Assembly: GCA_043754515.1 (NCBI GenBank)
Contig: JAYUUO010000191.1
Coordinates: forward strand, 1-31,943
Direction of reading: 5' to 3'
DNA length: 31,943 nt
Source: Armatimonadota bacterium
GTDB lineage: Bacteria; Armatimonadota; Armatimonadia; Armatimonadales; Armatimonadaceae
A model generated the notes under the pieces. That model was not told where the DNA came from, made no database searches, and saw only the letters and a program-made list of their open reading frames with translations. The stretch's first letter is position 1. Each line of letters opens with the position of its first letter. This document shows positions 1,894 through 14,223 of the stretch, piece after piece. A program made the position numbers and the translations under genes.

Positions 1894-3870
1894 ATGACGG
1901 ACACGGGTGCGAAAGACAGCAGTATCGGGGCGACGAATCGCTGGCAGATAAGGATCGCCGCGCTCGCCCTCTGCGGGATCGGGCTGTACCTGATCCTGCG
2001 CTACGGACTGCGACTTACCGGAACGGTGGGGGCGGGAGTGGCGTCCGCAGACATTCCGTTGCTGGTGGTGCTCGTGGTCGGCGGTCTGCCGCTGGTATGG
2101 GGGCTGTTAGTCAAAATCGCGCGGCGCGAGTTCGGCTCCGATCTGCTGGCGGGTATATCCATCGTCACCTCGGTGCTCCTCCACGAGTATCTCGCCGGGG
2201 CGGTCGTGGTGCTGATGCTGTCCGGGGGACAGGCCCTCGAAGAGTACGCGACGCTCCGGGCGTCCTCCGTGCTTCAGGCGCTGGCGAAGCGTATGCCGAC
2301 GCGGGCACAACGCAAGACCGGCGACACGCTAACGGAGATTCCGCTCGAAAGCGTTGCCGTCGGGGATGTCCTGGTCGTGTTCCCCTATGCCCTCTGTCCG
2401 GTAGACGGGGTCGTCGTGGAGGGGCGCGGCTCGATGGACGAATCTTATCTGACCGGCGAGCCGTACCGCGTCTCCAAAGCACCCGGCGTCGCCGTTCTTT
2501 CCGGGGCGATCAACGGCGACGCCGCCCTGACGATCCGTTGCGACAAGCCCGCGAGTGATTCCCGTTATGCCAAGATCATGCGGGTCATGCAGGATTCGGA
2601 GCAACACCGCCCCCACTTGCGGCGCCTGGGAGACCAACTCGGCGCGTGGTACACCCCACTCGCCGTGTTCATCGCCCTGGTCGCCTGGGTCGCCACCGCT
2701 GACCCGCTCCGCTTCCTCGCCGTGATGGTCGTCGCCACGCCGTGCCCGCTCCTAATCGCCATCCCCGTCGCCATCATCGGCTCCATCTCGCTCGCGGCGC
2801 GGATGGGGATCATCATCAAGGACCCGTCGGTTCTCGAGAACATCAGCGAATGCCGGGTCGCCATTTTCGACAAAACCGGTACGCTCACCTATGGAAAGCC
2901 TCAACTAACCGAGATACTGACGGTGGCGGGCGCGGAGGTCACTCAGGACACGGTTCTCGGTCTCGTCGCTAGTCTGGAACGCTACTCGAAGCACCCGCTT
3001 TCCGGGGCGATTTTAGAGGCCGCGCGGCAGAAGAAGATAGTCTTGCAGGACGCGCAGGAGGCGCGGGAACTCCCCGGCGCGGGACTCCAGGCTCTTATCG
3101 CCGGGCAACGCGTTCAGGTAACCGGGCGCGGCAAACTCGCCGCGCTCTTTCCCGATCAGGTTCCGTTCCTGCCGCCCGCCGCGCCGGGCATGGAGTGCGT
3201 GATTGTCATAGACGGCAGGTACGCCGCCACGTTCCGCTTTCGCGACGAGCCGCGCCCGGAAGGCGCGCTCTTTATCGGGCATCTGAAACCCAAGCACCAT
3301 ATCCAGCGCGTGATGATCGTTTCGGGAGACCGGGAGGCGGAAGTCGCGTATCTCGCGAAGCGGGTCGGCATCACGGAGGTGTACGCGAGTCAGAGTCCCG
3401 AGGAGAAACTGGCACTGGTACGCGCGGAGACCGCGAAGGCGCAAACCATCTTCCTCGGCGACGGGATTAATGACGCGCCCGCTTTGATCGCGGCGACGGT
3501 CGGGGTTGCGTTCGGCAACAACAGCGAGATAACGGGTGAGGCGGCGGATGTGGTGATTCTCGACAGCTCGCTCGGAAAGGTGGACGTCCTGTTTCACATC
3601 GGGCGGCGGATGCGGATCATTGCGCTACAGAGCGCGGTCGGCGGGATGGTGCTGAGCCTCATCGGCATGTTGCTCGCGGCGGCGGGCTACCTGACACCGG
3701 TGGTAGGCGCGGTCAGTCAGGAGGTCATTGACGTGCTCGCGGTGCTGAACGCGTTGCGCGCGGCGATCCCGCCGAAAGAACTGACGGACTACCAGGCGGA
3801 GCGGGGGGCGAACCCGCTACCGGCGAACAAAGATGAGGAGACCGGCGTGTTATCAGCCGCGCCGCGCTAG
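1894..3870 (+). CDS. Heavy-metal translocating P-type ATPase, P1B-5 subtype
   Basis: [21 protein letters not shown] and GDGIND are present. Late TM helices carry Q-x4-G-x3-S-x3-M ([14 protein letters not shown]) and GAVSQEVID, the P1B-5 signatures. Confidence 0.85.
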
Positions 3871-5058
3871 TAAAACGCACACGTCATCCTCCAGTTTATC
3901 TTGAGTGAACGCTCTCGCCGTGGCCACGATCCGCTCGCCCATCGCCTCCACCGTCAGCGCGTCCGCCGCCGCCGCCGCCGCCACGTTTTGGAACCGGTCG
4001 TAGCCGAACATATCCCGATCCGGGCGGGGGCTGTGCGCCTCCGTGATGCCGTCCGTTATCATGACGAGCGTGTCACCCGATCCGAGCGTCACGGTTTCGT
4101 GTTCGTATTTCGCCGCCGGGTCGAGACCCAGAATCAGTCCCCGTACTTGAGTGGGTTCCGTCGCCCCGCTACGCCGGACAATGAGAGGCGGTTCCATGCC
4201 GGAGGAGGCGACATATGCCGTGCCCGTCAGGGTATCTACGACGGCGACCGCGACGCACACGAACGCGTCCGCCGCGCGCCCGTCGAGTCGTTGGGAATCT
4301 ATGAGATAGCGGTTCAGGCGACACAGGACGAGCGATGGGCACTTGTGTTCGCGGAGCAGGGCGCGCAGAGCGTACTTGACCTCGGCGGTATACTGGGCGG
4401 CTTTCAGACCTTTGCCCGTGCAGTCGCCGACGACGAGCGCGACTCTGTTCTCGGAAAGCGAAAGGGTGTCGAAGAAGTCGCCCCCGATCAGTGCCTCGTC
4501 CCATGCGGGGAGGTACTGCGTGCTGACTTCCAGCCCGTTCAGTGTCGCGGGCGGCGGCGTCAGGAGCAGTGCCCGTTGCAGGGTCTCGCTGACGTGTCGT
4601 TGTTGCTCCAGAAGGGCGTCACGTTCTAGCTCTATCTCGACGCGGCGCGTCACGTCGTTCTGTACGCCGACGAAATTCGTCACCACCCCGGATTCGTCGC
4701 GCATGGGCGACATCTCTAATTCGTTCCAGAAAGTGGTACCGTCCTTTCGGTAGTTGAGCAGAACGACCCGGCAGGGGTACTCCCCGGCGATGGCGGCGCG
4801 TATCGTGGCGACAGCGGCGGGGTCGGTGTCCGGGCCTTGCAGGAGGCGCATGTTGTGCCCGTCTATCTCGCCCTCCGTGTACCCGCACACGCGCTCGAAG
4901 GCGGGGTTGTGATAGATAATGGGGTTCCCCGCGAGGCGCGGGTCGGTGACCACAATGCTAGCGACGGCGGTGCGAACGACCCGCTGTAGTAGCAGTAGCG
5001 TAGCATCTAGCGACCCCGCCTTATGCGCGCCAGTCGGCGTGTTGTTCGTACCGTCCAT
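3853..5058 (-). CDS. LOV-like PAS domain + SpoIIE/PP2C (RsbU-type) phosphatase
   Basis: PAS/LOV segment [24 protein letters not shown]...NYRKDG..FWNEL...[11 protein letters not shown]2C motifs [21 protein letters not shown] and DDVC are intact. ATG 5058 is preferred over the ORF-track start at 5151. The 3' end overlaps the ATPase gene convergently by 18 bp. Confidence 0.85.
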
Positions 5059-5525
5059 CCGTATGGGCCTCGTCGGCGGCGCGAATTCGCGACACCAACG
5101 TTCTACTCGCATCGCGATCGAGGCGCGACGCCAGTGGATATAATATATCACGCAAGGGAGGAATCTTTACCCGGTTCTTCGCCTTTACTGCATTGCATTT
5201 TCGTTTCAGTATCGTGAAAAACGGGCATAAGCGAGTATGCTAATAACGGCACGATGACCTTCCCACTCTATGCGGGAATAAACCCTGTGACACCCCATCG
5301 CGCGCCGACGGGTAGCACGCTCGCTCAGCCTCCCATCGGCGGTAACCGGTACGCCCGCCCCATACGCTGTCGCCGGTCGCGCCGCTGACGCGACCCGCTA
5401 GAAAAGCCAGGACGCCACCGTGGACGTAACGGAAAATCGCAGCGGGAACTCGGGGACGGCGCGCCAAACCTGCCACTTGTTCGCGTCGCCTTACGGCAGG
5501 CGACACGAACAGAAAGACAAGACAA

Positions 5526-6425
5526 ATGTTCAATAAAATCATGGTCTGCTCGGACGGTTCTGATGACGCGCTACTCGCGGCCCGGCTCGCGGCCCGGCTC
5601 GCGCGAAAGTTCCACTCGGAGGTGTTGCTCGTGCATTCGTATGACCTGTCCGGCGCGTACCGGGCTTTCGCGAAGGGTTCCTCAACCGTCGGCCCCGCCG
5701 GGGATGGGGCGGTCACCTATGCGAATGAGGCGCGGGCTGATCTGAAGCAGTCCACGGGCACGGTTTTCGAGGGGTCGGGCGTGAAGTACAACACACTCAT
5801 TTCGGAGGGTCATCCCGTCGAGGTGATCACACGCCTCGCGCGGGAGCATGAAGTGGATCTGATCGTACTCGGTCACCGGGGGATAGACAATTCACCGCCC
5901 GTTTTCATGGGTAGCGTTTCCGAGGGGGTGCTACATCACGCCCTCTGCAACGTGCTGATCGCGCGCGGCGAACCGCTCGACCAGGAGACACCGAAACTGG
6001 GGCATATCCTGCTGGCGTCCGACGGCTCCGATGGGGCGCGCGACGCGACCGTGGTTGCCACGCGACTCGCTCGGGACTTCTCCGCTTCGCTCAGCGTCCT
6101 CAACGTGCTGAGTACACATCCGATCCTCGGCGGGTTGCCGCCTTACTTCGTCGGTAACCTGCCATCCGATGGCCAGGCCGAACGGGACCTCGCGAGCATC
6201 ACCGACGACGTGGAACTTGAGACGATGGATACGGATGTACCCATCACCTTTCATCAACAGGCGGGAAGCCCGGCGGAGGCGATCGTCGCCTTCGCCGACC
6301 ATCACGAGACCGACCTGATCGTGATCGGCAGCCGGGGGCTTGGGACGTTCAAGTCGCTACTGCTCGGGAGTGTCTCCAACCGCGTCGCGCATCTGTCGCG
6401 TCACTCGGTGCTGGTAACCCGCTGA
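5526..6425 (+). CDS. Universal stress protein with tandem USP domains
   Basis: Two repeats: IMVCSDGS...DLIVLGHRG...MGSVSEGVLH and ILLASDGS...DLIVIGSRGLG..LLGSVSNRV. Confidence 0.92.
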   Translation: MFNKIMVCSDGSDDALLAARLAARLARKFHSEVLLVHSYDLSGAYRAFAKGSSTVGPAGDGAVTYANEARADLKQSTGTVFEGSGVKYNTLISEGHPVEVITRLAREHEVDLIVLGHRGIDNSPPVFMGSVSEGVLHHALCNVLIARGEPLDQETPKLGHILLASDGSDGARDATVVATRLARDFSASLSVLNVLSTHPILGGLPPYFVGNLPSDGQAERDLASITDDVELETMDTDVPITFHQQAGSPAEAIVAFADHHETDLIVIGSRGLGTFKSLLLGSVSNRVAHLSRHSVLVTR

Positions 6426-6469
6426 TCGGCATGGATGGCACCGACTAACTACACAAAGGATTAAGAACT

Positions 6470-6850
6470 ATGCACAAAAATATGAAGGAGATGGAACAGT
6501 ATAACGACGAGCGGTTCGTCGTCAAGAGCGTGTACAAGGGCGAGCAGAGCGAGGCGATTCTGCTGTTCCTAACCCCCGGTCAGGAGATGCCGTCGCACCC
6601 ACACGAGCGGTTCGAGGTAGTGCTGGTGCCGCGCAACGGTACCGGCTTGCTCGTCGTGGACGGCGGAAAGGTGGGGGCGCGGAACGTCGCCCTGATACCA
6701 GGGACGCTGTACTATGAGCCGTCTGGGAAGACGTTCTCGATCAAGAATGTCGGCCTGGAGCCGTTCCAGACATTGATCACGCTGATCCGCGTCGAAGCGG
6801 CGGCACATCCCGCGCAACCCGCGCCGGAACCGGAAGGAAATCCTCTATGA
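6470..6850 (+). CDS. Cupin-domain protein
   Basis: PGQEMPSHPHERFEVVLV...GTG is cupin motif 1. Shine-Dalgarno AAAGGA upstream. Confidence 0.75.
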   Translation: MHKNMKEMEQYNDERFVVKSVYKGEQSEAILLFLTPGQEMPSHPHERFEVVLVPRNGTGLLVVDGGKVGARNVALIPGTLYYEPSGKTFSIKNVGLEPFQTLITLIRVEAAAHPAQPAPEPEGNPL

Positions 6851-7413
6851 CACTCCCTCTCATGACGGAGCACGCGGCGGTCGGCATTTACGCCGACCAC
6901 GAGCAGGCCGAGAACGCGCTTCGGATGCTCGCGGAGGCGGGCATCACGCTGGATAACATCTCCGTGATCGGTGGCGCGGAACGGGGGCGCGAGGCGGCGT
7001 CGGGCAAGTACCGCCCCCCGACGTTCGTGAAGCAGGAGTTACAGAAGGAGGGGATTCGCGACGGCATCTGGATCGGCGGTATGTTCGGCTCGCTGGTCGG
7101 TTTCGGCGCGCTTCTGGTGCCGGGCGTAGGCCCTCTCATGGTGCTCGGGCCGCTCGCGGCACTGCTGATCGGCGTCGGCGCGGGCGCGCTGGTGGGTGAC
7201 ATCACCGGCGCGGTGACGTTCACCGAAATCGCGAAGGTGTACCGGGATTGGCTTGTGGCGGGGAACTTCCTGGTCATCGTCCACTGCGCCACCAGCGAGG
7301 AGCCGCTCGTCCGGGGCATATTGGAGTCGGCGCACGCGCTAGGGGTACACGGCCACCCCACGCCCGCGCCCCGCACCCCGCCGAGGACCCCGCCACATGC
7401 CCCCGCCCACTGA
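6847..7413 (+). CDS. General stress protein (YflT/17M-like) membrane protein
   Basis: AVGIYADHEQAENALRMLAEAG..ISVIG, a Gly-rich hairpin with PGVGPLMVLGPL, and GNFLVIVH. ATGA overlap with the cupin gene. Confidence 0.75.
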   Translation: MTLPLMTEHAAVGIYADHEQAENALRMLAEAGITLDNISVIGGAERGREAASGKYRPPTFVKQELQKEGIRDGIWIGGMFGSLVGFGALLVPGVGPLMVLGPLAALLIGVGAGALVGDITGAVTFTEIAKVYRDWLVAGNFLVIVHCATSEEPLVRGILESAHALGVHGHPTPAPRTPPRTPPHAPAH

Positions 7414-9961
7414 GAAGTCACCCCCACTCCCCACGTTCTGGAGCCTCCCCGCGACAGACCTGCTGGCGAGTCTGCGTTCGACGCCGACGGGGCTGACCGG
7501 CACCGACGCGGCGAGCCGACTCGCGAAAAGCGGCGCGGCGGCGCGCCCCGATTCCGGCGCGGGCGGGACGCTGATGTTGCTAGCGTCGCAGTTCAGAAGC
7601 CCCATTATCCTGTTGCTACTTTCCGCCGTCGTGCTGTCATTCTTCCTCCACGACACGACCAACGCCTTCACGATCCTGCTGATCGTGCTGGCGAGCGGGC
7701 TACTCGGCTTCTGGCAGGAGCAGGGGGCGGCGGGCGCGGTGAAGAAGTTACTCGCGGTGATCCAGACCCGCTCCACGATCCTGCGCGACGGGAAGCCGAC
7801 CCCGGTGGAGTCCGCGCAAATCGTGCCGGGCGACGTCTCGCGGCTCGCGGCGGGCGACGTTATTCCGGGGGACAGCCTCCTACTCGAATCGAAGGATCTT
7901 TTCGTCAACGAGGCGACGCTGACCGGCGAGACGTTCCCAGTCGAGAAGACCGTCGGCGTGTTGGCTCCGGAAACGCCGCTCGGCGGGCGTTCAAACGCGC
8001 TGTTCGCGGGGACGTATGTGACCAGCGGCACCGCGACGGCACTGATCGTGCGGACGGGCAAAGACACTGAGTTTGGCAAAGTGTCGGAAACACTCAAAAG
8101 CCGCCCGCCCGAGACCGAGTTCGAGCGCGGCATCCGGCAGTTCGGCAACCTCCTGATGCAGGTGACGCTGGTACTGGTCGTCGCCATCTTCGCGGTGAAC
8201 GTTTACCTGCACCGCCCCGTGCTGGAATCCTTTCTATTCTCGCTCGCGCTGGCGGTCGGGCTGACGCCGCAACTGCTCCCGGCGATCATTAGCGTCAACC
8301 TGGCGCACGGGGCGCGGCGCATGGCGGCGGCGCGGGTGATCGTGAAGCGGCTCGCCGCCATCGAGAACTTCGGCAGCATGGACATTCTCTGCTCCGACAA
8401 GACCGGAACCCTGACCGAGGGTGAAGTCCGGCTCCAGTCCGCGCTGAATATCGCGGGCGAGGCGGGCGAGAAGACGCTACTCTACGCGCAACTCAACGCG
8501 TCCTTCCAGACCGGCTACGCGAACCCGCTTGATAAGGCCATACTCGCCTACCGCGCCGCCGAACTGTCCGCCTACGCGAAGCGGGACGAGGAGCCGTACG
8601 ACTTCGTCCGCAAACGACTCAGCGTGCTCGTCGAGCGGGACGGGGCGTGCCTGATGGTGACGAAAGGGGCGTTCGCCAATATTCTCGCGGTCTGCGCCAC
8701 GGCGGAGACGCCGACCGGTGCCGTGACCCCGCTCGCCGATTGCGCGGGGGCGATTCAGAAGCAGTTCGAGTCGTTCAGCGGGCAGGGTTTCCGCGCCGTC
8801 GGCGTCGCCTACCGCGATCTAGAGACGCAAACGGGGATCACGAAAGAGGACGAGAAGGGGATGACGTTCCTCGGCTTCTTGCTGTTTTATGACCCGGTGA
8901 AGGAGGGCATGACCGAGACGATACAGCGGCTACGCAGACTCGGCATCACGCTCAAACTCGTAACGGGCGATAACCGGCTGGTCGCGGCGCATGTCGGGCG
9001 GGCGGTCGGCCTGTCCACCGAGAACATTCTCGCGGGGCCAGATATGCGCGACATGAGCGAGGCGGTGCTACGCGAGCGGGTCGTCGGCGCGGAGATATTC
9101 GCGGAGATCGAGCCGAACCAGAAGGAGAGCGTCATCATCGCGCTCCAGAAGGCGGGGCACGTGGTAGGGCATATGGGCGACGGCATCAATGACGCGCCCG
9201 CGCTCCACGCGGCGGATGTCGGGATTTCGGTCGCGAACGCGGTGGATGTCGCGCGGGAGGCGGCGGACATCGTGCTACTGGATCAGGATCTGGCGGTGCT
9301 GGAGCAGGGGGTGCGCGAAGGGCGGATCACATTCGCGAACACGCTCAAGTATGTCTTCATGGCGACCAGTGCCAACTTCGGGAACATGTTCAGCATGGCG
9401 GGCGCGTCGCTCTTCCTACCTTTCCTGCCGCTACTCCCGACGCAGGTGCTACTAACGAACCTGTTCAGCGACCTGCCCGAGATGACCATCGCGACAGACA
9501 GCGTGGACGCCGAGCAGGTGGACAAGCCGCGCCGCTGGGACATCGGGTTCATCCGCCGCTTCATGCTGGTGTTCGGGCTGGCGAACTCGGCCTGCGATTA
9601 CCTGACGTTCGGCGTGCTACTGTTCTTCCTGCACGCGACCCCGACGCAGTTCCGCACGGGGTGGTTCATCGAGAACGTCGTCACCGCGGCACTAATCGTG
9701 CTCGTCGTGCGCACGCGCAAGCCGTTCTACAAAAGCCGTCCGGGGAAGTGGCTACTCGCGGCCACGCTCGGGACGGTGGCGGCAACGATCGCGTTGCCGT
9801 ACTCGCCGCTCGCCCACGTGTGGCACTTTTCCACGATCTCGCCACTGTTCCTGCTGGCACTTGCGGCGATAATGGTCTTCTACGTGGTGGTCGCGGAAGT
9901 AGCGAAGTTCTTCTTTTACCGCCACGAAGCGGTCACAGCAGCTACCCACCCGAAAATATGA
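7397..9961 (+). CDS. mgtA: Magnesium-translocating P-type ATPase (P3B)
   Basis: [61 protein letters not shown] and FRTGWFIE. Confidence 0.9.
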   Translation: MPPPTEKSPPLPTFWSLPATDLLASLRSTPTGLTGTDAASRLAKSGAAARPDSGAGGTLMLLASQFRSPIILLLLSAVVLSFFLHDTTNAFTILLIVLASGLLGFWQEQGAAGAVKKLLAVIQTRSTILRDGKPTPVESAQIVPGDVSRLAAGDVIPGDSLLLESKDLFVNEATLTGETFPVEKTVGVLAPETPLGGRSNALFAGTYVTSGTATALIVRTGKDTEFGKVSETLKSRPPETEFERGIRQFGNLLMQVTLVLVVAIFAVNVYLHRPVLESFLFSLALAVGLTPQLLPAIISVNLAHGARRMAAARVIVKRLAAIENFGSMDILCSDKTGTLTEGEVRLQSALNIAGEAGEKTLLYAQLNASFQTGYANPLDKAILAYRAAELSAYAKRDEEPYDFVRKRLSVLVERDGACLMVTKGAFANILAVCATAETPTGAVTPLADCAGAIQKQFESFSGQGFRAVGVAYRDLETQTGITKEDEKGMTFLGFLLFYDPVKEGMTETIQRLRRLGITLKLVTGDNRLVAAHVGRAVGLSTENILAGPDMRDMSEAVLRERVVGAEIFAEIEPNQKESVIIALQKAGHVVGHMGDGINDAPALHAADVGISVANAVDVAREAADIVLLDQDLAVLEQGVREGRITFANTLKYVFMATSANFGNMFSMAGASLFLPFLPLLPTQVLLTNLFSDLPEMTIATDSVDAEQVDKPRRWDIGFIRRFMLVFGLANSACDYLTFGVLLFFLHATPTQFRTGWFIENVVTAALIVLVVRTRKPFYKSRPGKWLLAATLGTVAATIALPYSPLAHVWHFSTISPLFLLALAAIMVFYVVVAEVAKFFFYRHEAVTAATHPKI

Positions 9962-9970
9962 CCGCGAAGT

Positions 9971-10007
9971 AATAAGAGGGGGAAGCCAATAGGCTCCCCC
10001 CTCGTTT
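9971..10007. terminator. Hairpin, probably a bidirectional intrinsic terminator
   Basis: GAGGGGGAAGCC-AATA-GGCTCCCCCCTC (9976-10003, one mismatch). Followed by GTTT on + and TTATT on -. Confidence 0.75.
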
Positions 10008-10240
10008 AAGGTTTGGATGGATCAGACTCTGCGTCCTATTTAGTTGTCACCCGCTATTTGGTTATCTGTATGAAGTTGGTAGTCGCTATGCAATTGTCTG
10101 TATTCTGTTTTAAGATTCTATTTGCCGTTCAATTATCGTTATTCAGTTGTTTGTGTATGTGGTTGTATTTCGCGCTATTCAGTTTTTCTTCGGCGTATCT
10201 GTCGCGGTATGTATACCGCTCTGTCCAAACTATCAAACCT
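9971..10240 (-). ncRNA. Candidate A-rich, AUA-repeat small RNA
   Basis: Bounded by an ECF-like promoter and the terminator. The 5' and 3' ends are complementary, and there are 16 AUA motifs (see findings). Confidence 0.5.
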
Positions 10241-10243
10241 AAT

Positions 10244-10269
10244 GACGCCGGTAAGGGCGGAAAAGTTTC
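10244..10269 (-). promoter_or_regulatory. ECF-sigma-type promoter (GAAAC-N17-CGTC)
   Basis: The minus strand reads gGAAAC ttttccgcccttaccgg CGTC att. GAAACTTTTC is repeated 22 bp upstream (10282-10291). Confidence 0.5.
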
Positions 10270-10314
10270 CCGAATCCCGGTGAAAAGTTTCTAACACCCT
10301 CGGTGGGACGCATC

Positions 10315-12030
10315 TCACTCCTGTGTGTTCGGTGTCGCCGTCACGACCTCGCGCATCTCGCGGGCGAACTCGTCGAGTAGCGACGTCGCCTCGCCGCCCG
10401 CGTTCGCGTCCCCCGTCTCCACCTGCGTGAGTAGCGACGCCACTCCTTGCAGGAGCAGACTCGCGGCGAAGACGCGCTTGTGATGCTTGCGCTTCGTCGG
10501 CTCGTCGGCGGTGGCGGGCGGATTGACCGCCTTCAGGAGCGACACCAGTCCGCTCACCTTCGCCGTCTGCGCGGACGTTGCCTTGTAAAAGACGTCCCGC
10601 GCGATCTGCTTCTTTTCATACGCGGCGCGGTTCTGCGTCACGCGATCCGCGATTCGCGTGATGCCCGCGTCGAATAGTTGCAACGCCGCGCGATAGCGCG
10701 CCCCCGCGTCGGCGCTGCCGGTCATCGCCGTCAGCTCGCGCAACGCCCCGTCGTAGTCGCCTTTGGTCGCCAGCAACCGCGCGTAGCCGAGCATCGCGTC
10801 GTGGTTGGCGGGCGCGTTCTTCCGCGCCGCCAGATAGAGCGTCGCCGCCGCGTCCGTGTCGCCTTCCGCGACCAGTGCCTCCGCAAGTCCGAGTTGCGCC
10901 CACACCGCGTCCGGTTGCGTCGCCAGAATTGCGGAATAGGTGTTCTTCGCCGCCACCGTGTCACCAGTCTGTGTCAGGACATCGGCGAGGAGGCGCGACG
11001 CGGCGGCGTGCCCCTTGATGTCGGTCGCGGGCACCACGCTCAGGGCGCGTTTCGCCTCGGAGAGCGCGTCGCCCTTGCGCCCAGCTTGCAGGTATGCGCT
11101 GGCGAGCGACGCGCGGAACGCCGTGTTGAGCGGCGACAGGCTGACGGCTTTGCGGTAGGAGAGGATCGCGCCGGGGATGTCACCGGCGCGCAGTTCATCG
11201 TCGCCCTGGTGCCGCTCCGCCTCCGCCGCGTTGTCGGTATCCGCCCCGGAGGACGGGAGCGGCTCTCGCGCCGTGACCGGCGCGACCGGGACGACGGGCG
11301 CGGTCATCGGCACGGGCGCGGCGACGTCCGGCTCGCCGTTCGCGAGGAGCGGGACCGCCGGGGGCGGGGTCGCGCGCACGGTCGGGATCGGTTGCGTCGC
11401 GGGCTGGCTCGGCGGCGTCACCCGCGATAATTCGCGTAGCGGCCCGTTCAGGAAACCCTCGACCAGCATATTCGCCGCGCTGAGCAGGGCGTTGCTCGGG
11501 CCACCTGGCAACCCGGACGTCCCGCTCGCGTTGCGCCGGTCCCGCCACACCTTGTGCCCCTCGATCTGCTCCGTTTGTAGCGAAACATCTACCGCGCCCT
11601 GCGCCGGGGACGCCGGGAGGCCCGAGACCACGAACGCCGAGTAGCCCGCGCCCGCCGCCTTCGCCAGCGCGTAGCACTCCGTCTCGGTCGGCTGATCCGG
11701 CTTGATCAGTTTGATCTTCGCCTCCATCATCGCCCGCGCGAAGAGCGGGCTGTCCGGCGCGTACAGCACCGCGTCCACGTACCCCGACTCATTAAAACGG
11801 TCGCGCACCGCCGCCGCCGCCTGCCGCGCCCGCGACACATTTTCGTCCCCGGTGGCACTGCCCCCGGAGTCACGCGCGCCTGTCGAGACCCCCGGAGTGA
11901 ACAGCACAATCAGCGGCTTGGCCGGAGCCGCGAACACGCCGCAGGCGGTTCCCGCGAGAGCCGCGAGCAGTCCCAGCACCTTCCGAACCCCGGATAATCC
12001 CGGCGTCAACCCGTTCTTTCTAGTTCCCAC
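10315..12030 (-). CDS. Exported TPR-repeat protein with an N-terminal alpha/beta (TolB-N/CsgG-like) domain
   Basis: Signal-peptide-like N-terminus, Pro-rich linker and multiple TPRs (AILSYRKAVSLSP, AQLGLAEAL, AMLGYARLL). Confidence 0.75.
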   Translation of the reverse strand: MGTRKNGLTPGLSGVRKVLGLLAALAGTACGVFAAPAKPLIVLFTPGVSTGARDSGGSATGDENVSRARQAAAAVRDRFNESGYVDAVLYAPDSPLFARAMMEAKIKLIKPDQPTETECYALAKAAGAGYSAFVVSGLPASPAQGAVDVSLQTEQIEGHKVWRDRRNASGTSGLPGGPSNALLSAANMLVEGFLNGPLRELSRVTPPSQPATQPIPTVRATPPPAVPLLANGEPDVAAPVPMTAPVVPVAPVTAREPLPSSGADTDNAAEAERHQGDDELRAGDIPGAILSYRKAVSLSPLNTAFRASLASAYLQAGRKGDALSEAKRALSVVPATDIKGHAAASRLLADVLTQTGDTVAAKNTYSAILATQPDAVWAQLGLAEALVAEGDTDAAATLYLAARKNAPANHDAMLGYARLLATKGDYDGALRELTAMTGSADAGARYRAALQLFDAGITRIADRVTQNRAAYEKKQIARDVFYKATSAQTAKVSGLVSLLKAVNPPATADEPTKRKHHKRVFAASLLLQGVASLLTQVETGDANAGGEATSLLDEFAREMREVVTATPNTQE

Positions 12031-13510
12031 CGAGCACCCCCAGTGCCGCTTCGCAGGTGTTCAAGCCGCGTTGCGCCGCGCCGGGGTTGCGACCGGTTGC
12101 TATCCGCGCTTTGTACGCCGCGATGGCTTGTATGTAGGCGACCTTCGCGCTCCCCGAGTCGCCGGCGCGCTGGTAGCACAGCGCGATCGCCTGTTGCGAA
12201 TCGGCCACGGACGCGCCCGCCGCGATGGCTTCGCGGTACGCTGTTACCGCGTCGGGGTAGCGGCCCAGACCTTGCAAGACGCGCGCCCGCTCTAGCGGCG
12301 CGCCGTCCATGTCGGGCGCGGGCGTCGGTACCGTTTTAGGAACCGGGCCGGACGTAGCAGAAGCCGCTACCCCGGACCTAGGGCCGCGCGGGCTGACCGT
12401 GATTCGCATGTAACCCGAGGGGCGCGATGACGGGGCGGTGACGGGGGGCACCGCGCCTGTCGCGCCCGTAGGCGGTACCGCCGCGACGCGCTCGCCGTCG
12501 CCGAACCCGCCCGACATGGTGCCGCTACCGGCACTCACGCCGCGATTGGTGCCGGGCGGGGCCGCGACGATAGGCGGTAGCGACGCGTCGCCACCAAGTG
12601 ATTCTTTGCTTACTTTGATTATTTCGGCGGGAACGAAGAGCGGCGCGGTTTTAACGCGACCGGCCCCGGGCAGTGCTTTCGCCTGGGGTAGGGGCGCGGC
12701 GGCTAAAGCCGCCGGCAACGCGGGGGCACGACCCGCCGTCGCGCCCGCGCCCGCCGCGCCTTGCGCCGCCTGCGCCTGTAGCTGTCTGCGCGTCGCGTCG
12801 AGCGGCACGAACGGGTCCATGCCCCGCGCGACGTCGGGAGCGGGCGGCGGCGCGGCGACCGCGTTGACGGGGACTGATGCGTCGGGAGACGGATCGGGCG
12901 TGGCTACTACCCCCGGCGCGGCACGCGGATGCCGGGGGATGAACGCGCCGCCCGGCGTCATGGCGACGAAGCCGACGAACAGCGCGAACCCGCCCGCGAC
13001 CATTCCGGCGGCGACCGGGAACCAGTTCGGCAGCGTGAACGGCGTGGTACCCGGCAGTCCCGCGCCGCGCAGGGTGGGCACGGTGCCCGCCGACACCGGC
13101 TTTCCCGGCGGCGAACTTGTGTGCTCACCGCGCTTCAGCCGCTCCAAACGCGTCGCTTCGGCGGGCGCGTTGGGCAGGAGCATGACTACCTTTTCCTGCG
13201 CGACGACCGCCTTATCGAACTGGTCGGTGTGCTCGTAGAGTGCGACGAGGAGACCGTAGGCCGACGGGCTGAACGGCAACGTCGCGACCGCCTCAAGGGC
13301 GATGGGTATCGCGCCGATATACTTGCCCTGATCGGCGAGCAGGTGCGCGTCGGCAAGTAGCACCGCGCCACGGGCGGCTCTGCGATCCGACTCGGCGCGG
13401 GCGGCTTCTTCGGCGGCGAGGCTGCCTTCAGGCGGGGCGGTCTTCGCGCCGCACTCGCGGCAGAACTTGTTGCCGACCGGGTTTCGACTGTTACATTCTT
13501 TGCACGTCAT
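12020..13510 (-). CDS. Zinc-ribbon + TPR single-pass membrane protein
   Basis: N-terminal CKEC...KFCRECG, TPRs, a TM helix (WFPVAAGMVAGGFALFVGFVAM), a Pro/Ala linker and a C-terminal TPR. Confidence 0.8.
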   Translation of the reverse strand: MTCKECNSRNPVGNKFCRECGAKTAPPEGSLAAEEAARAESDRRAARGAVLLADAHLLADQGKYIGAIPIALEAVATLPFSPSAYGLLVALYEHTDQFDKAVVAQEKVVMLLPNAPAEATRLERLKRGEHTSSPPGKPVSAGTVPTLRGAGLPGTTPFTLPNWFPVAAGMVAGGFALFVGFVAMTPGGAFIPRHPRAAPGVVATPDPSPDASVPVNAVAAPPPAPDVARGMDPFVPLDATRRQLQAQAAQGAAGAGATAGRAPALPAALAAAPLPQAKALPGAGRVKTAPLFVPAEIIKVSKESLGGDASLPPIVAAPPGTNRGVSAGSGTMSGGFGDGERVAAVPPTGATGAVPPVTAPSSRPSGYMRITVSPRGPRSGVAASATSGPVPKTVPTPAPDMDGAPLERARVLQGLGRYPDAVTAYREAIAAGASVADSQQAIALCYQRAGDSGSAKVAYIQAIAAYKARIATGRNPGAAQRGLNTCEAALGVLGGN

Positions 13511-14223
13511 AATCTATCCTTCAGGGAGGCGGATAATTTGTCCCACCCGAATCCGCCGTCATTGGTGACGTAGTTTCGGCAAACACCACTCGTATGTATG
13601 TTGACTACTTGCATGTATTCGTCCCGAAACATCGTGTTCAGGTTCGACAGTTTATGCCCGATGGGTTCAACCACCTGCGAGTACAGGTCGGGAATGTGCG
13701 AGATGAGAGACCAGAACGTATCGCCGCATAATCTGGAGTGACCCATCCGCTCTTTATTTTCACCAGTTCCGAAGCAACAACCTTCAACAAAAACGATGTC
13801 GAAACCACGGCTGCTCCTCGGGTGTGTCTTCCGTGACTGTTGAAAACGACGAAGCATCCGCGCCGATGTTTTCGGGTCTTGCGCCACTGCCGTGGACAAG
13901 ACGATCATGTATAGCGTATCGCCGAGTTGCAATTTAAAGTCTATCCTCTCCGTAGCAGAGTCATCGGCTGAACTTACACCGCGAATCAACTCCCTCAAAA
14001 AGTTGTCCGTCCGCTCCCCCTGTCGGGGCACCAGATGATTATCCAGCAGACGTTGCGCGACATCTTGCGGAGTAAGGAGAGTACGGCTCAGGGAGTAAAT
14101 ATTTTCGCGACTCGCCGACTGTAACAAATCGAACGACAAAAGGTCCGCCATCCACTGCTTGTATACCGCAGGTGGTCTACTCTCCGCGAAGTCGGTCGCC
14201 GTCTCGAGGTTAGATAGTTTCAT
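13507..14223 (-). CDS. Degenerate EcoO109I/PmeII-like type II restriction endonuclease homolog
   Basis: VEGCCFG, LCGDTFWSLIS..PDLY..VVEPIGHK and GFGWDKL resemble this family as I recall it. GC is visibly lower than in flanking genes. Confidence 0.6.
   Translation of the reverse strand: MKLSNLETATDFAESRPPAVYKQWMADLLSFDLLQSASRENIYSLSRTLLTPQDVAQRLLDNHLVPRQGERTDNFLRELIRGVSSADDSATERIDFKLQLGDTLYMIVLSTAVAQDPKTSARMLRRFQQSRKTHPRSSRGFDIVFVEGCCFGTGENKERMGHSRLCGDTFWSLISHIPDLYSQVVEPIGHKLSNLNTMFRDEYMQVVNIHTSGVCRNYVTNDGGFGWDKLSASLKDRL

Follow-up and report, generated by a model that had tools for sequence, protein, structure and literature searches.

A free-standing small RNA family of Armatimonadota that may act as a NusA sponge

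A gene in the genome of an Armatimonadota bacterium encodes a predicted RNA that repeats an 11-nucleotide (nt) unit ending in AUA. It lies on the minus strand of contig JAYUUO010000191.1 (GenBank assembly GCA_043754515.1), whose 31,943 nt were analyzed and are called the window here. We are highly confident that this is a real non-coding RNA gene and nearly as confident that the units are protein sites. The universal transcription factor NusA is the probable partner, and on balance the sequence evidence leans toward a trans-acting NusA sponge that would be transcribed with the help of an alternative sigma factor. More tentatively, a NusA-sequestering RNA may let stress sigma factors cut rRNA antitermination and readjust termination across the genome, and its site may be an unrecognized autoregulatory element of nusA and rimP in several phyla that moved from a cis role to a trans sponge in the Armatimonadota. 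Known sponge RNAs target translational regulators, and 6S RNA targets initiation. If true, our reading would reveal a new way of controlling transcription elongation, termination, and ribosome synthesis, and the analysis would yield a precise consensus for sequence-specific NusA binding.

The repeats stand out from their surroundings. The window is 64.6% GC, and positions 10031-10200 are 37.6% GC (A27 C28 G36 T79). Our recount therefore agrees with a first-pass annotation, made from the sequence alone, that had given 38% GC and an excess of T over A (79 to 27) for this segment. That annotation had also counted 16 AUA trinucleotides on the minus strand and one on the plus strand between 10037 and 10233, and we obtained the same numbers. 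Shuffled sequences contained 6.7 (mononucleotide) or 11.0 (dinucleotide) AUAs on average (P = 0.0002 each), and no other 197-nt stretch of the window contained more than 7. The proposed AUA motif was real, but the repeat proved to be longer: from the AUA contexts of 12 arrays we derived an 11-mer, A(C/A)AAYYN(A/C)AUA, that often recurs with a 14-nt period. The window RNA has eight units, five perfect and three with one mismatch, and its remaining eight AUAs fall outside full units. Five or more perfect units occurred in 0 of 20,000 shuffles. All of the following are motif matches except the last entry:

10176 to 10186, minus strand: unit 1, perfect
10156 to 10166, minus strand: unit 2, perfect
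10140 to 10150, minus strand: unit 3, perfect
10101 to 10111, minus strand: unit 4, one mismatch
10069 to 10079, minus strand: unit 6, one mismatch
10055 to 10065, minus strand: unit 7, one mismatch
10037 to 10047, minus strand: unit 8, perfect
10087 to 10097, minus strand: unit 5, perfect; pattern identical to the site after the boxA of a sister family's internal transcribed spacer (ITS)
10116 to 10127, minus strand: unexplained non-unit element GGCAAAUAGAA; invariant in 4/4 genus homologues, similar in other family members

The YGGC of the GGCAAAUAGAA element is able to pair with GCCG at 10194-10191.

The array is framed by elements expected of an independent transcription unit:

10265 to 10270, minus strand: extracytoplasmic function (ECF)-type -35 element GGAAAC, from sequence; same distance in three genus homologues and several family members; predicted function
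10244 to 10247, minus strand: ECF-type -10 element CGTC, 17 nt past the -35 element; predicted start at about 10240-10238
10213 to 10238, minus strand: candidate second, SigB-like promoter GTTTGA-N14-CGGTAT, by pattern match
9971 to 10240, minus strand: predicted non-coding RNA, about 270 nt; ends predicted from promoter and terminator
10224 to 10230, minus strand: closing stem, 5' arm GUUUGGA, from the minimum free energy (MFE) fold; pairs kept in 3/4 genus homologues, no compensatory change
10011 to 10017, minus strand: closing stem, 3' arm UCCAAAC, from the MFE fold and genus comparison
10204 to 10219, minus strand: small 5' hairpin in the MFE fold; kept in 3/4 genus homologues
9971 to 10003, minus strand: intrinsic terminator, from a terminator scanner; 12-pair hairpin (10003-9976) and UUAUU tail

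Both the GAAAC-N17-CGTC promoter and the 3' hairpin with UUAUU had been noticed in the first-pass annotation, and both were found as described (GGAAAC at 10270-10265, CGTC at 10247-10244). The SigB-like pattern, which follows the general SigB promoter consensus, may be coincidental here because it overlaps two stems. It also lies about 40 nt before the array in 10/10 sister-family loci, and many relatives appear to use a SigB-like promoter in place of the ECF-type one. Sigma factors of the SigB/F/G family scored above the cut-off in the source genome and are encoded in 5/5 genomes tested. In the MFE prediction, the minus strand folds (z = -5.0) into a closing stem around an open interior. The pairing of 5' and 3' ends that had been proposed is thus present, but its register is that of GUUUGGA (10230-10224) with UCCAAAC (10017-10011), which is both computed and conserved. 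Covariation of the closing stem was not found among the four genus sequences, and many more distant homologues lack the stem. In the terminator, two-sided changes occurred at 3 of 11 pairs among the four genus homologues.

The RNA belongs to a family found across the phylum. With blastn, we recovered clear homologues from the genus's other three genomes and weaker matches throughout the order; no match was found with blastn in phage and plasmid collections. Arrays of two units occurred in 57 of 401 genomes of the phylum, including the source genome (some of the 57 carry something other than this RNA), compared with 3 of 401 for a reversed control. By family, examples of the frequency are 9/23, 12/29, and 15/32, and arrays of the same kind were found in records labeled Capsulimonadales, Capsulimonadaceae, Armatimonadales, Chthonomonadaceae, and Armatimonadota. 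We examined the layout of 49 array loci after dropping four that had no RNA-like context (L037, L048, L049, and L084) and one at a contig end (L064). An ECF-like pattern lay upstream of 14 arrays, a SigB-like pattern of 15, and either of 26, against 38 and 6 of 815 control windows; the patterns were defined after the sequences had been viewed, and related loci are not independent. A terminator-like hairpin followed 44/49 arrays, as judged by a lax detector run on array loci only. Neighboring genes differed between clades (TPR, glycosyltransferase, mnmE, deacetylase, and PilZ). Between promoter and terminator, the units are irregularly spaced and in every case on the transcribed strand. The layout is mostly free-standing: a promoter, repeated sites, a terminator, and no conserved open reading frame (ORF).

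A second, weaker array with three perfect units and a weak terminator is present in the source genome (C229:22315-22381; L067, about 2016-2082, plus strand). It may belong to a shorter subfamily together with L085, L082, and L083. Two units and a hairpin also lie between mnmG/gidA and rsmG/gidB at L080:1088-1111 (plus strand).

That the locus is not an RNA gene at all, but an array of DNA-binding sites, a chance AT-rich spacer, or a small ORF, is very improbable. Two ORFs do overlap the RNA (35 codons on the minus strand and 93 codons on the plus strand), and simple tandem repeats of similar composition are found in unrelated genomes. However, no reading frame is conserved in the four genus homologues, where both the minus-strand ORF and the plus-strand ORFs are broken. 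The placement of units on the transcribed strand and their irregular spacing, often 14 nt and off helical phase, argue against this reading, as do the covarying terminator and contigs from RNA libraries that fall inside the RNA. No match to the RNA was found in Rfam, either at gathering score (the window and 16 related loci) or at E ≤ 10 (9900-10400); ARAGORN found nothing at the RNA, and there was no tRNA, tmRNA, or 6S match. Parts of 9700-10600 are contained in 11 public runs, seven of them recorded as RNA. We examined contigs from four of the 11: three RNA runs (two studies, labeled ice metagenome, one of them size-fractionated) and one that is probably DNA. The RNA-run contigs span 10020-10211, 10041-10195, and 10012-10221 with 1, 0, and 3 differences (155 to 210 nt, 98.6 to 100% identity). 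Near-identical contig cover of the flanking genes was not found in these three runs, where missing cover proves nothing. We take the RNA-library contigs as a weak hint of a discrete RNA. The contig that reaches 10221 extends upstream of the start of the inner, SigB-like promoter, itself a weak hint of the ECF-type start.

Taken together, these results support an undescribed, free-standing, repeat-bearing family of small RNAs (sRNAs) of the sponge type with an ECF-type promoter. Where the first-pass annotation had proposed an undescribed protein-sequestering sRNA, the analysis supports an RNA that is undescribed and free-standing, given homologues throughout the phylum, changing neighbors, no Rfam match, no conserved ORF, and contigs inside the RNA. 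Sequestration itself is predicted; no partner had been named, and the evidence below points to NusA rather than to CsrA or Hfq. Neither this RNA, nor one that titrates NusA, nor the leader site described below turned up in our literature searches, for which listings were partly covered and subscription journals largely absent.

The first line of evidence for NusA comes from rRNA operons. Among 15 Armatimonadota genomes searched for 16S rRNA, 14 had it and 13 had usable flanks. Immediately after a boxA-like sequence, 6 of the 13 rRNA loci have a strict unit and 4 have a variant. The sister-family genomes (4/4) all show this arrangement with the strict unit, in the 16S leader as well as in the ITS. 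The end of the boxA core is missing from the arrays, with TTG before 0 of 194 units and TTT before 1, so the units would bind NusA without NusB/NusE.

The second line concerns published binding data. AUA is critical for binding by the KH domains of Mycobacterium tuberculosis NusA, E. coli NusA binds the rrn spacer acaauuua at 71 µM and the nutL spacer aaaauuaa at 24 µM, and a UU-to-GG change abolishes spacer binding by E. coli NusA (PMC2724277). These spacer and AUA determinants match unit positions 1-8 and 9-11, respectively. The source-genome NusA has 387 amino acids, and the best match of its S1-KH region is PDB 2asb (E = 4e-60). The oligonucleotide reported in the M. tuberculosis NusA-RNA structure fits the unit consensus at 10 of 11 positions. 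The source-genome NusA appears to lack the AR2 domain. In gammaproteobacterial NusA, AR2 is autoinhibitory and blocks RNA binding (PMC6614797).

The third line comes from the leaders of nusA and rimP. A three-unit scan of prokaryote genomes returned at least 121 loci, mostly unrelated perfect tandem repeats; 56 of the 104 ORFs downstream of scan loci were compared with Pfam. Among these loci, four arrays in four phyla lie directly upstream of rimP (in a Bdellovibrio and a Planktophila) or nusA (in members of the Obscuribacterales and the Tepidisphaerales), and these are the only tandem pairs in their genomes. With the seed genomes excluded, a strict unit was found no more than 200 nt upstream of the nusA/rimP match in 22/29, 21/29, and 19/30 relatives, for a total of 62 of 88 leaders in three phyla (L356-L445; relatives of G410, G411, and G412). 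It usually sits just before the ribosome-binding site. Control leaders lacked it (rpsB, 0/30; rplM, 0/30; first two groups only), and the 4.1 Mb of one genome with such an array contain just 4 strict sites, including one at nusA. We therefore regard the 11-nt unit at these leaders as a candidate NusA autoregulatory site. An earlier study considers NusA the likeliest agent of feedback on the nusA operon and, beyond a terminator, reports no conserved leader element (PMC2965389). A leader site in Planctomycetota, Vampirovibrionia, and Actinomycetota could explain this long-noted autoregulation (PMC2965389).

In genomes of the order studied here, nusA heads its operon, with the known rimP-leader terminator directly upstream. 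RimP was found in none of the 61 genomes searched (RimP_N), and rimP leaders are thus unavailable there. Elsewhere, eight loci (L092, L174, L182, L136, L175, L187, L314, and L317) from Actinomycetota, Chloroflexota, Acidobacteriota, and metagenome contigs carry intergenic arrays of this unit or of units like it, in many cases immediately ahead of a gene; they could be sites for NusA in cis or ordinary tandem repeats. A viral scan yielded 38 loci. Most of those listed were perfect tandem repeats located in AT-rich or coding DNA, and we therefore make no claim of a phage version. Two viral contigs have three-unit arrays in DNA that appears to be intergenic (L279:1001-1053 and L280:1001-1037).

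A sponge for some other binder of single-stranded RNA, such as another product of the nusA operon (RbfA, YlxR/RnpM, or IF2), KhpA/B, ribosomal protein S1, or Hfq, is unlikely. The sponge layout does not name its partner, the nusA/rimP leader sites could be read by any protein of the operon, and Hfq is present in the source genome; the lack of the site in Armatimonadota nusA leaders, described below, points the same way. NusA alone, however, ties together the rrn site beside boxA, the leaders of the operon, and the AUA and UU determinants known from the literature. The RNA has just one AANAANAA and one triple ARN run. CsrA was not found in the source genome (G000, 92.7% complete) or in G010 but was found in 3/3 sister-family genomes, and the RNA has three GGA. 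Single sites in the genome were at background (40, versus 29 to 43 in scrambled controls), which speaks against an mRNA regulon of the CsrA kind, and we rejected such a regulon. Genome-wide, regulons of the promoter patterns were not resolved (10 versus 5 and 12 versus 7 of 3,952 upstream regions).

Base pairing offers a different use for the units. An RNA that rivaled the rRNA leader in pairing with the trailer strand of the 16S processing stalk would be consistent with the pairing of the best unit to relatives' 16S trailers at about -20 to -22 kcal/mol, a value without a shuffled control. Yet pairing by the native leader is roughly two times stronger. Positions 5-8 of the unit also differ between copies in a single RNA, and nusA leaders carry this degenerate unit without any trailer being involved. 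We give this idea very little credence.

In the mechanism that we propose for a NusA sponge, in which the strand and ends of the transcript, its sigma factor, NusA binding, titration, and the physiological effect are all predicted, an ECF-type promoter (SigB-like in many relatives) would make an RNA of 120 to 290 nt that ends at its own terminator. The RNA would present 3 to 8 mostly unpaired copies of the rRNA post-boxA site without the NusB/NusE half of boxA, and each unit would bind the S1-KH1-KH2 surface of one NusA. Upon induction, it would leave less NusA for the antitermination complexes on rRNA and for the pausing and termination that depend on NusA. Under stress, rRNA synthesis would be damped and termination shifted.

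The units could instead bind NusA without titrating it, either for storage or protection in dormancy or as cis loading sites that tune pausing and termination. Alternative-sigma promoters fit a role in dormancy, and a cis setting was seen in two families, where c-di-AMP riboswitch leaders begin with three-unit arrays. Orientation of the next gene, by crude ORF calling, cuts both ways. It was co-directional in 18 of the 49 loci, which suits cis loading; but it was convergent in 28, as at the window locus (and not seen in 3), so that for most arrays there is no gene that could be a target in cis. By our reasoning, eight units also exceed what cis loading would need. We consider binding without titration improbable, somewhat more so than another protein partner. 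The riboswitch-leader arrays (L078:1041-1084 and L081:1072-1108, minus strand; L079 is similar by eye) are possible cases of cis NusA loading.

Several results weigh against a NusA sponge. Some concern the leader and rRNA sites. The strict unit was found in 0/30 and 0/20 Armatimonadota nusA leaders, or 0 of 50 in all (loose matches, 4 and 2), and the source genome's own nusA leader also lacks it. In the family of the Bdellovibrio locus, only 1 of 28 further rimP leaders had a strict unit. No unit was seen in 3 of the 13 rRNA loci, and the source genome's rRNA is unassembled. The rRNA-leader site also lies within the leader-trailer helix (-37 to -46 kcal/mol), and this processing helix alone could conserve it. 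Others concern the RNA itself. Two-unit arrays were not found in two large families searched (0/47 and 0/18 genomes). The probably-DNA run covers nearly the same stretch as the RNA-run contigs and reaches 10266, inside the promoter, and the contigs give neither the strand, the ends, nor the level of a transcript. Units had a mean unpaired probability of 0.75 over 40 loci; the interior, which the first-pass annotation had called largely unstructured, is open in the fold but hardly more so than in shuffles (0.67 versus 0.65; higher in 25/40 loci). Finally, NusA is abundant in cells. Binding of such spacers by E. coli NusA is weak, at 24 to 137 µM (PMC2724277). Titration would therefore need a very abundant RNA.

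The RNA lies in the gap between a convergent P-type ATPase gene and the TPR gene:

7397 to 9961, plus strand: P-type ATPase gene (Pfam), convergent and downstream of the RNA; not conserved beside homologues
10315 to 12030, minus strand: TPR gene (Pfam), co-directional and upstream; upstream of the RNA in only 3/4 genus members

Both are given for context. Positions 1894-9961 hold a cluster of two P-type ATPase genes, a universal stress protein, and a PAS-SpoIIE phosphatase, a neighborhood that is not conserved in homologues. Farther along, an EcoO109I-like type II restriction endonuclease gene (13507-14223, minus strand) directly follows ruvB, with no DNA methyltransferase among the neighboring ORFs scanned.

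Several known systems resemble parts of this picture. Type III toxin-antitoxin RNAs also consist of repeats followed by a terminator, and then by a co-directional toxin gene, whereas the gene downstream of the window RNA is convergent and differs among homologues. The rimP-leader attenuator likewise belongs to the leader of the nusA operon, and NusA has been proposed to read it; it is a terminator hairpin (PMC2965389), while the 11-nt unit is linear, lies between that terminator and the ribosome-binding site, and is absent from Armatimonadota leaders. The rrn antitermination site bound by NusA (boxA with its spacer, and boxC; PMC2724277, PMC6614797) shares the unit itself, which is the post-boxA sequence in relatives' leaders and ITS and fits the published AUA and UU determinants. 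The arrays differ from it in repeating the site 3 to 8 times on a separate RNA, with no NusB/NusE boxA core and no downstream rRNA.

Closer in architecture are the sponge RNAs: CsrB/CsrC and RsmY/RsmZ titrate CsrA/RsmA, and CrcZ/CrcY titrate Hfq-Crc. The former group are stand-alone sRNAs with many short single-stranded protein sites and their own terminator, a layout that is predicted for the window RNA as well. Their sites, however, are GGA in hairpin loops rather than 11-nt units ending in AUA, and their target is a translational repressor rather than, as proposed here, a transcription factor. CrcZ/CrcY share an A-rich, weakly folded interior and an alternative-sigma promoter, but they repeat AANAANAA and use sigma-54, in contrast to a lone AANAANAA and an ECF- or SigB-like promoter. 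Neither group is matched by the window RNA in Rfam. 6S RNA is similar in being a nucleic-acid mimic that holds part of the transcription machinery under stress; the window RNA lacks its rod and central bubble and any Rfam 6S match, is multivalent, and would act on elongation and termination instead of initiation. The RNA would thus work like CsrB or CrcZ while being a member of neither family, and, if confirmed, NusA would be a new class of target for such RNAs.
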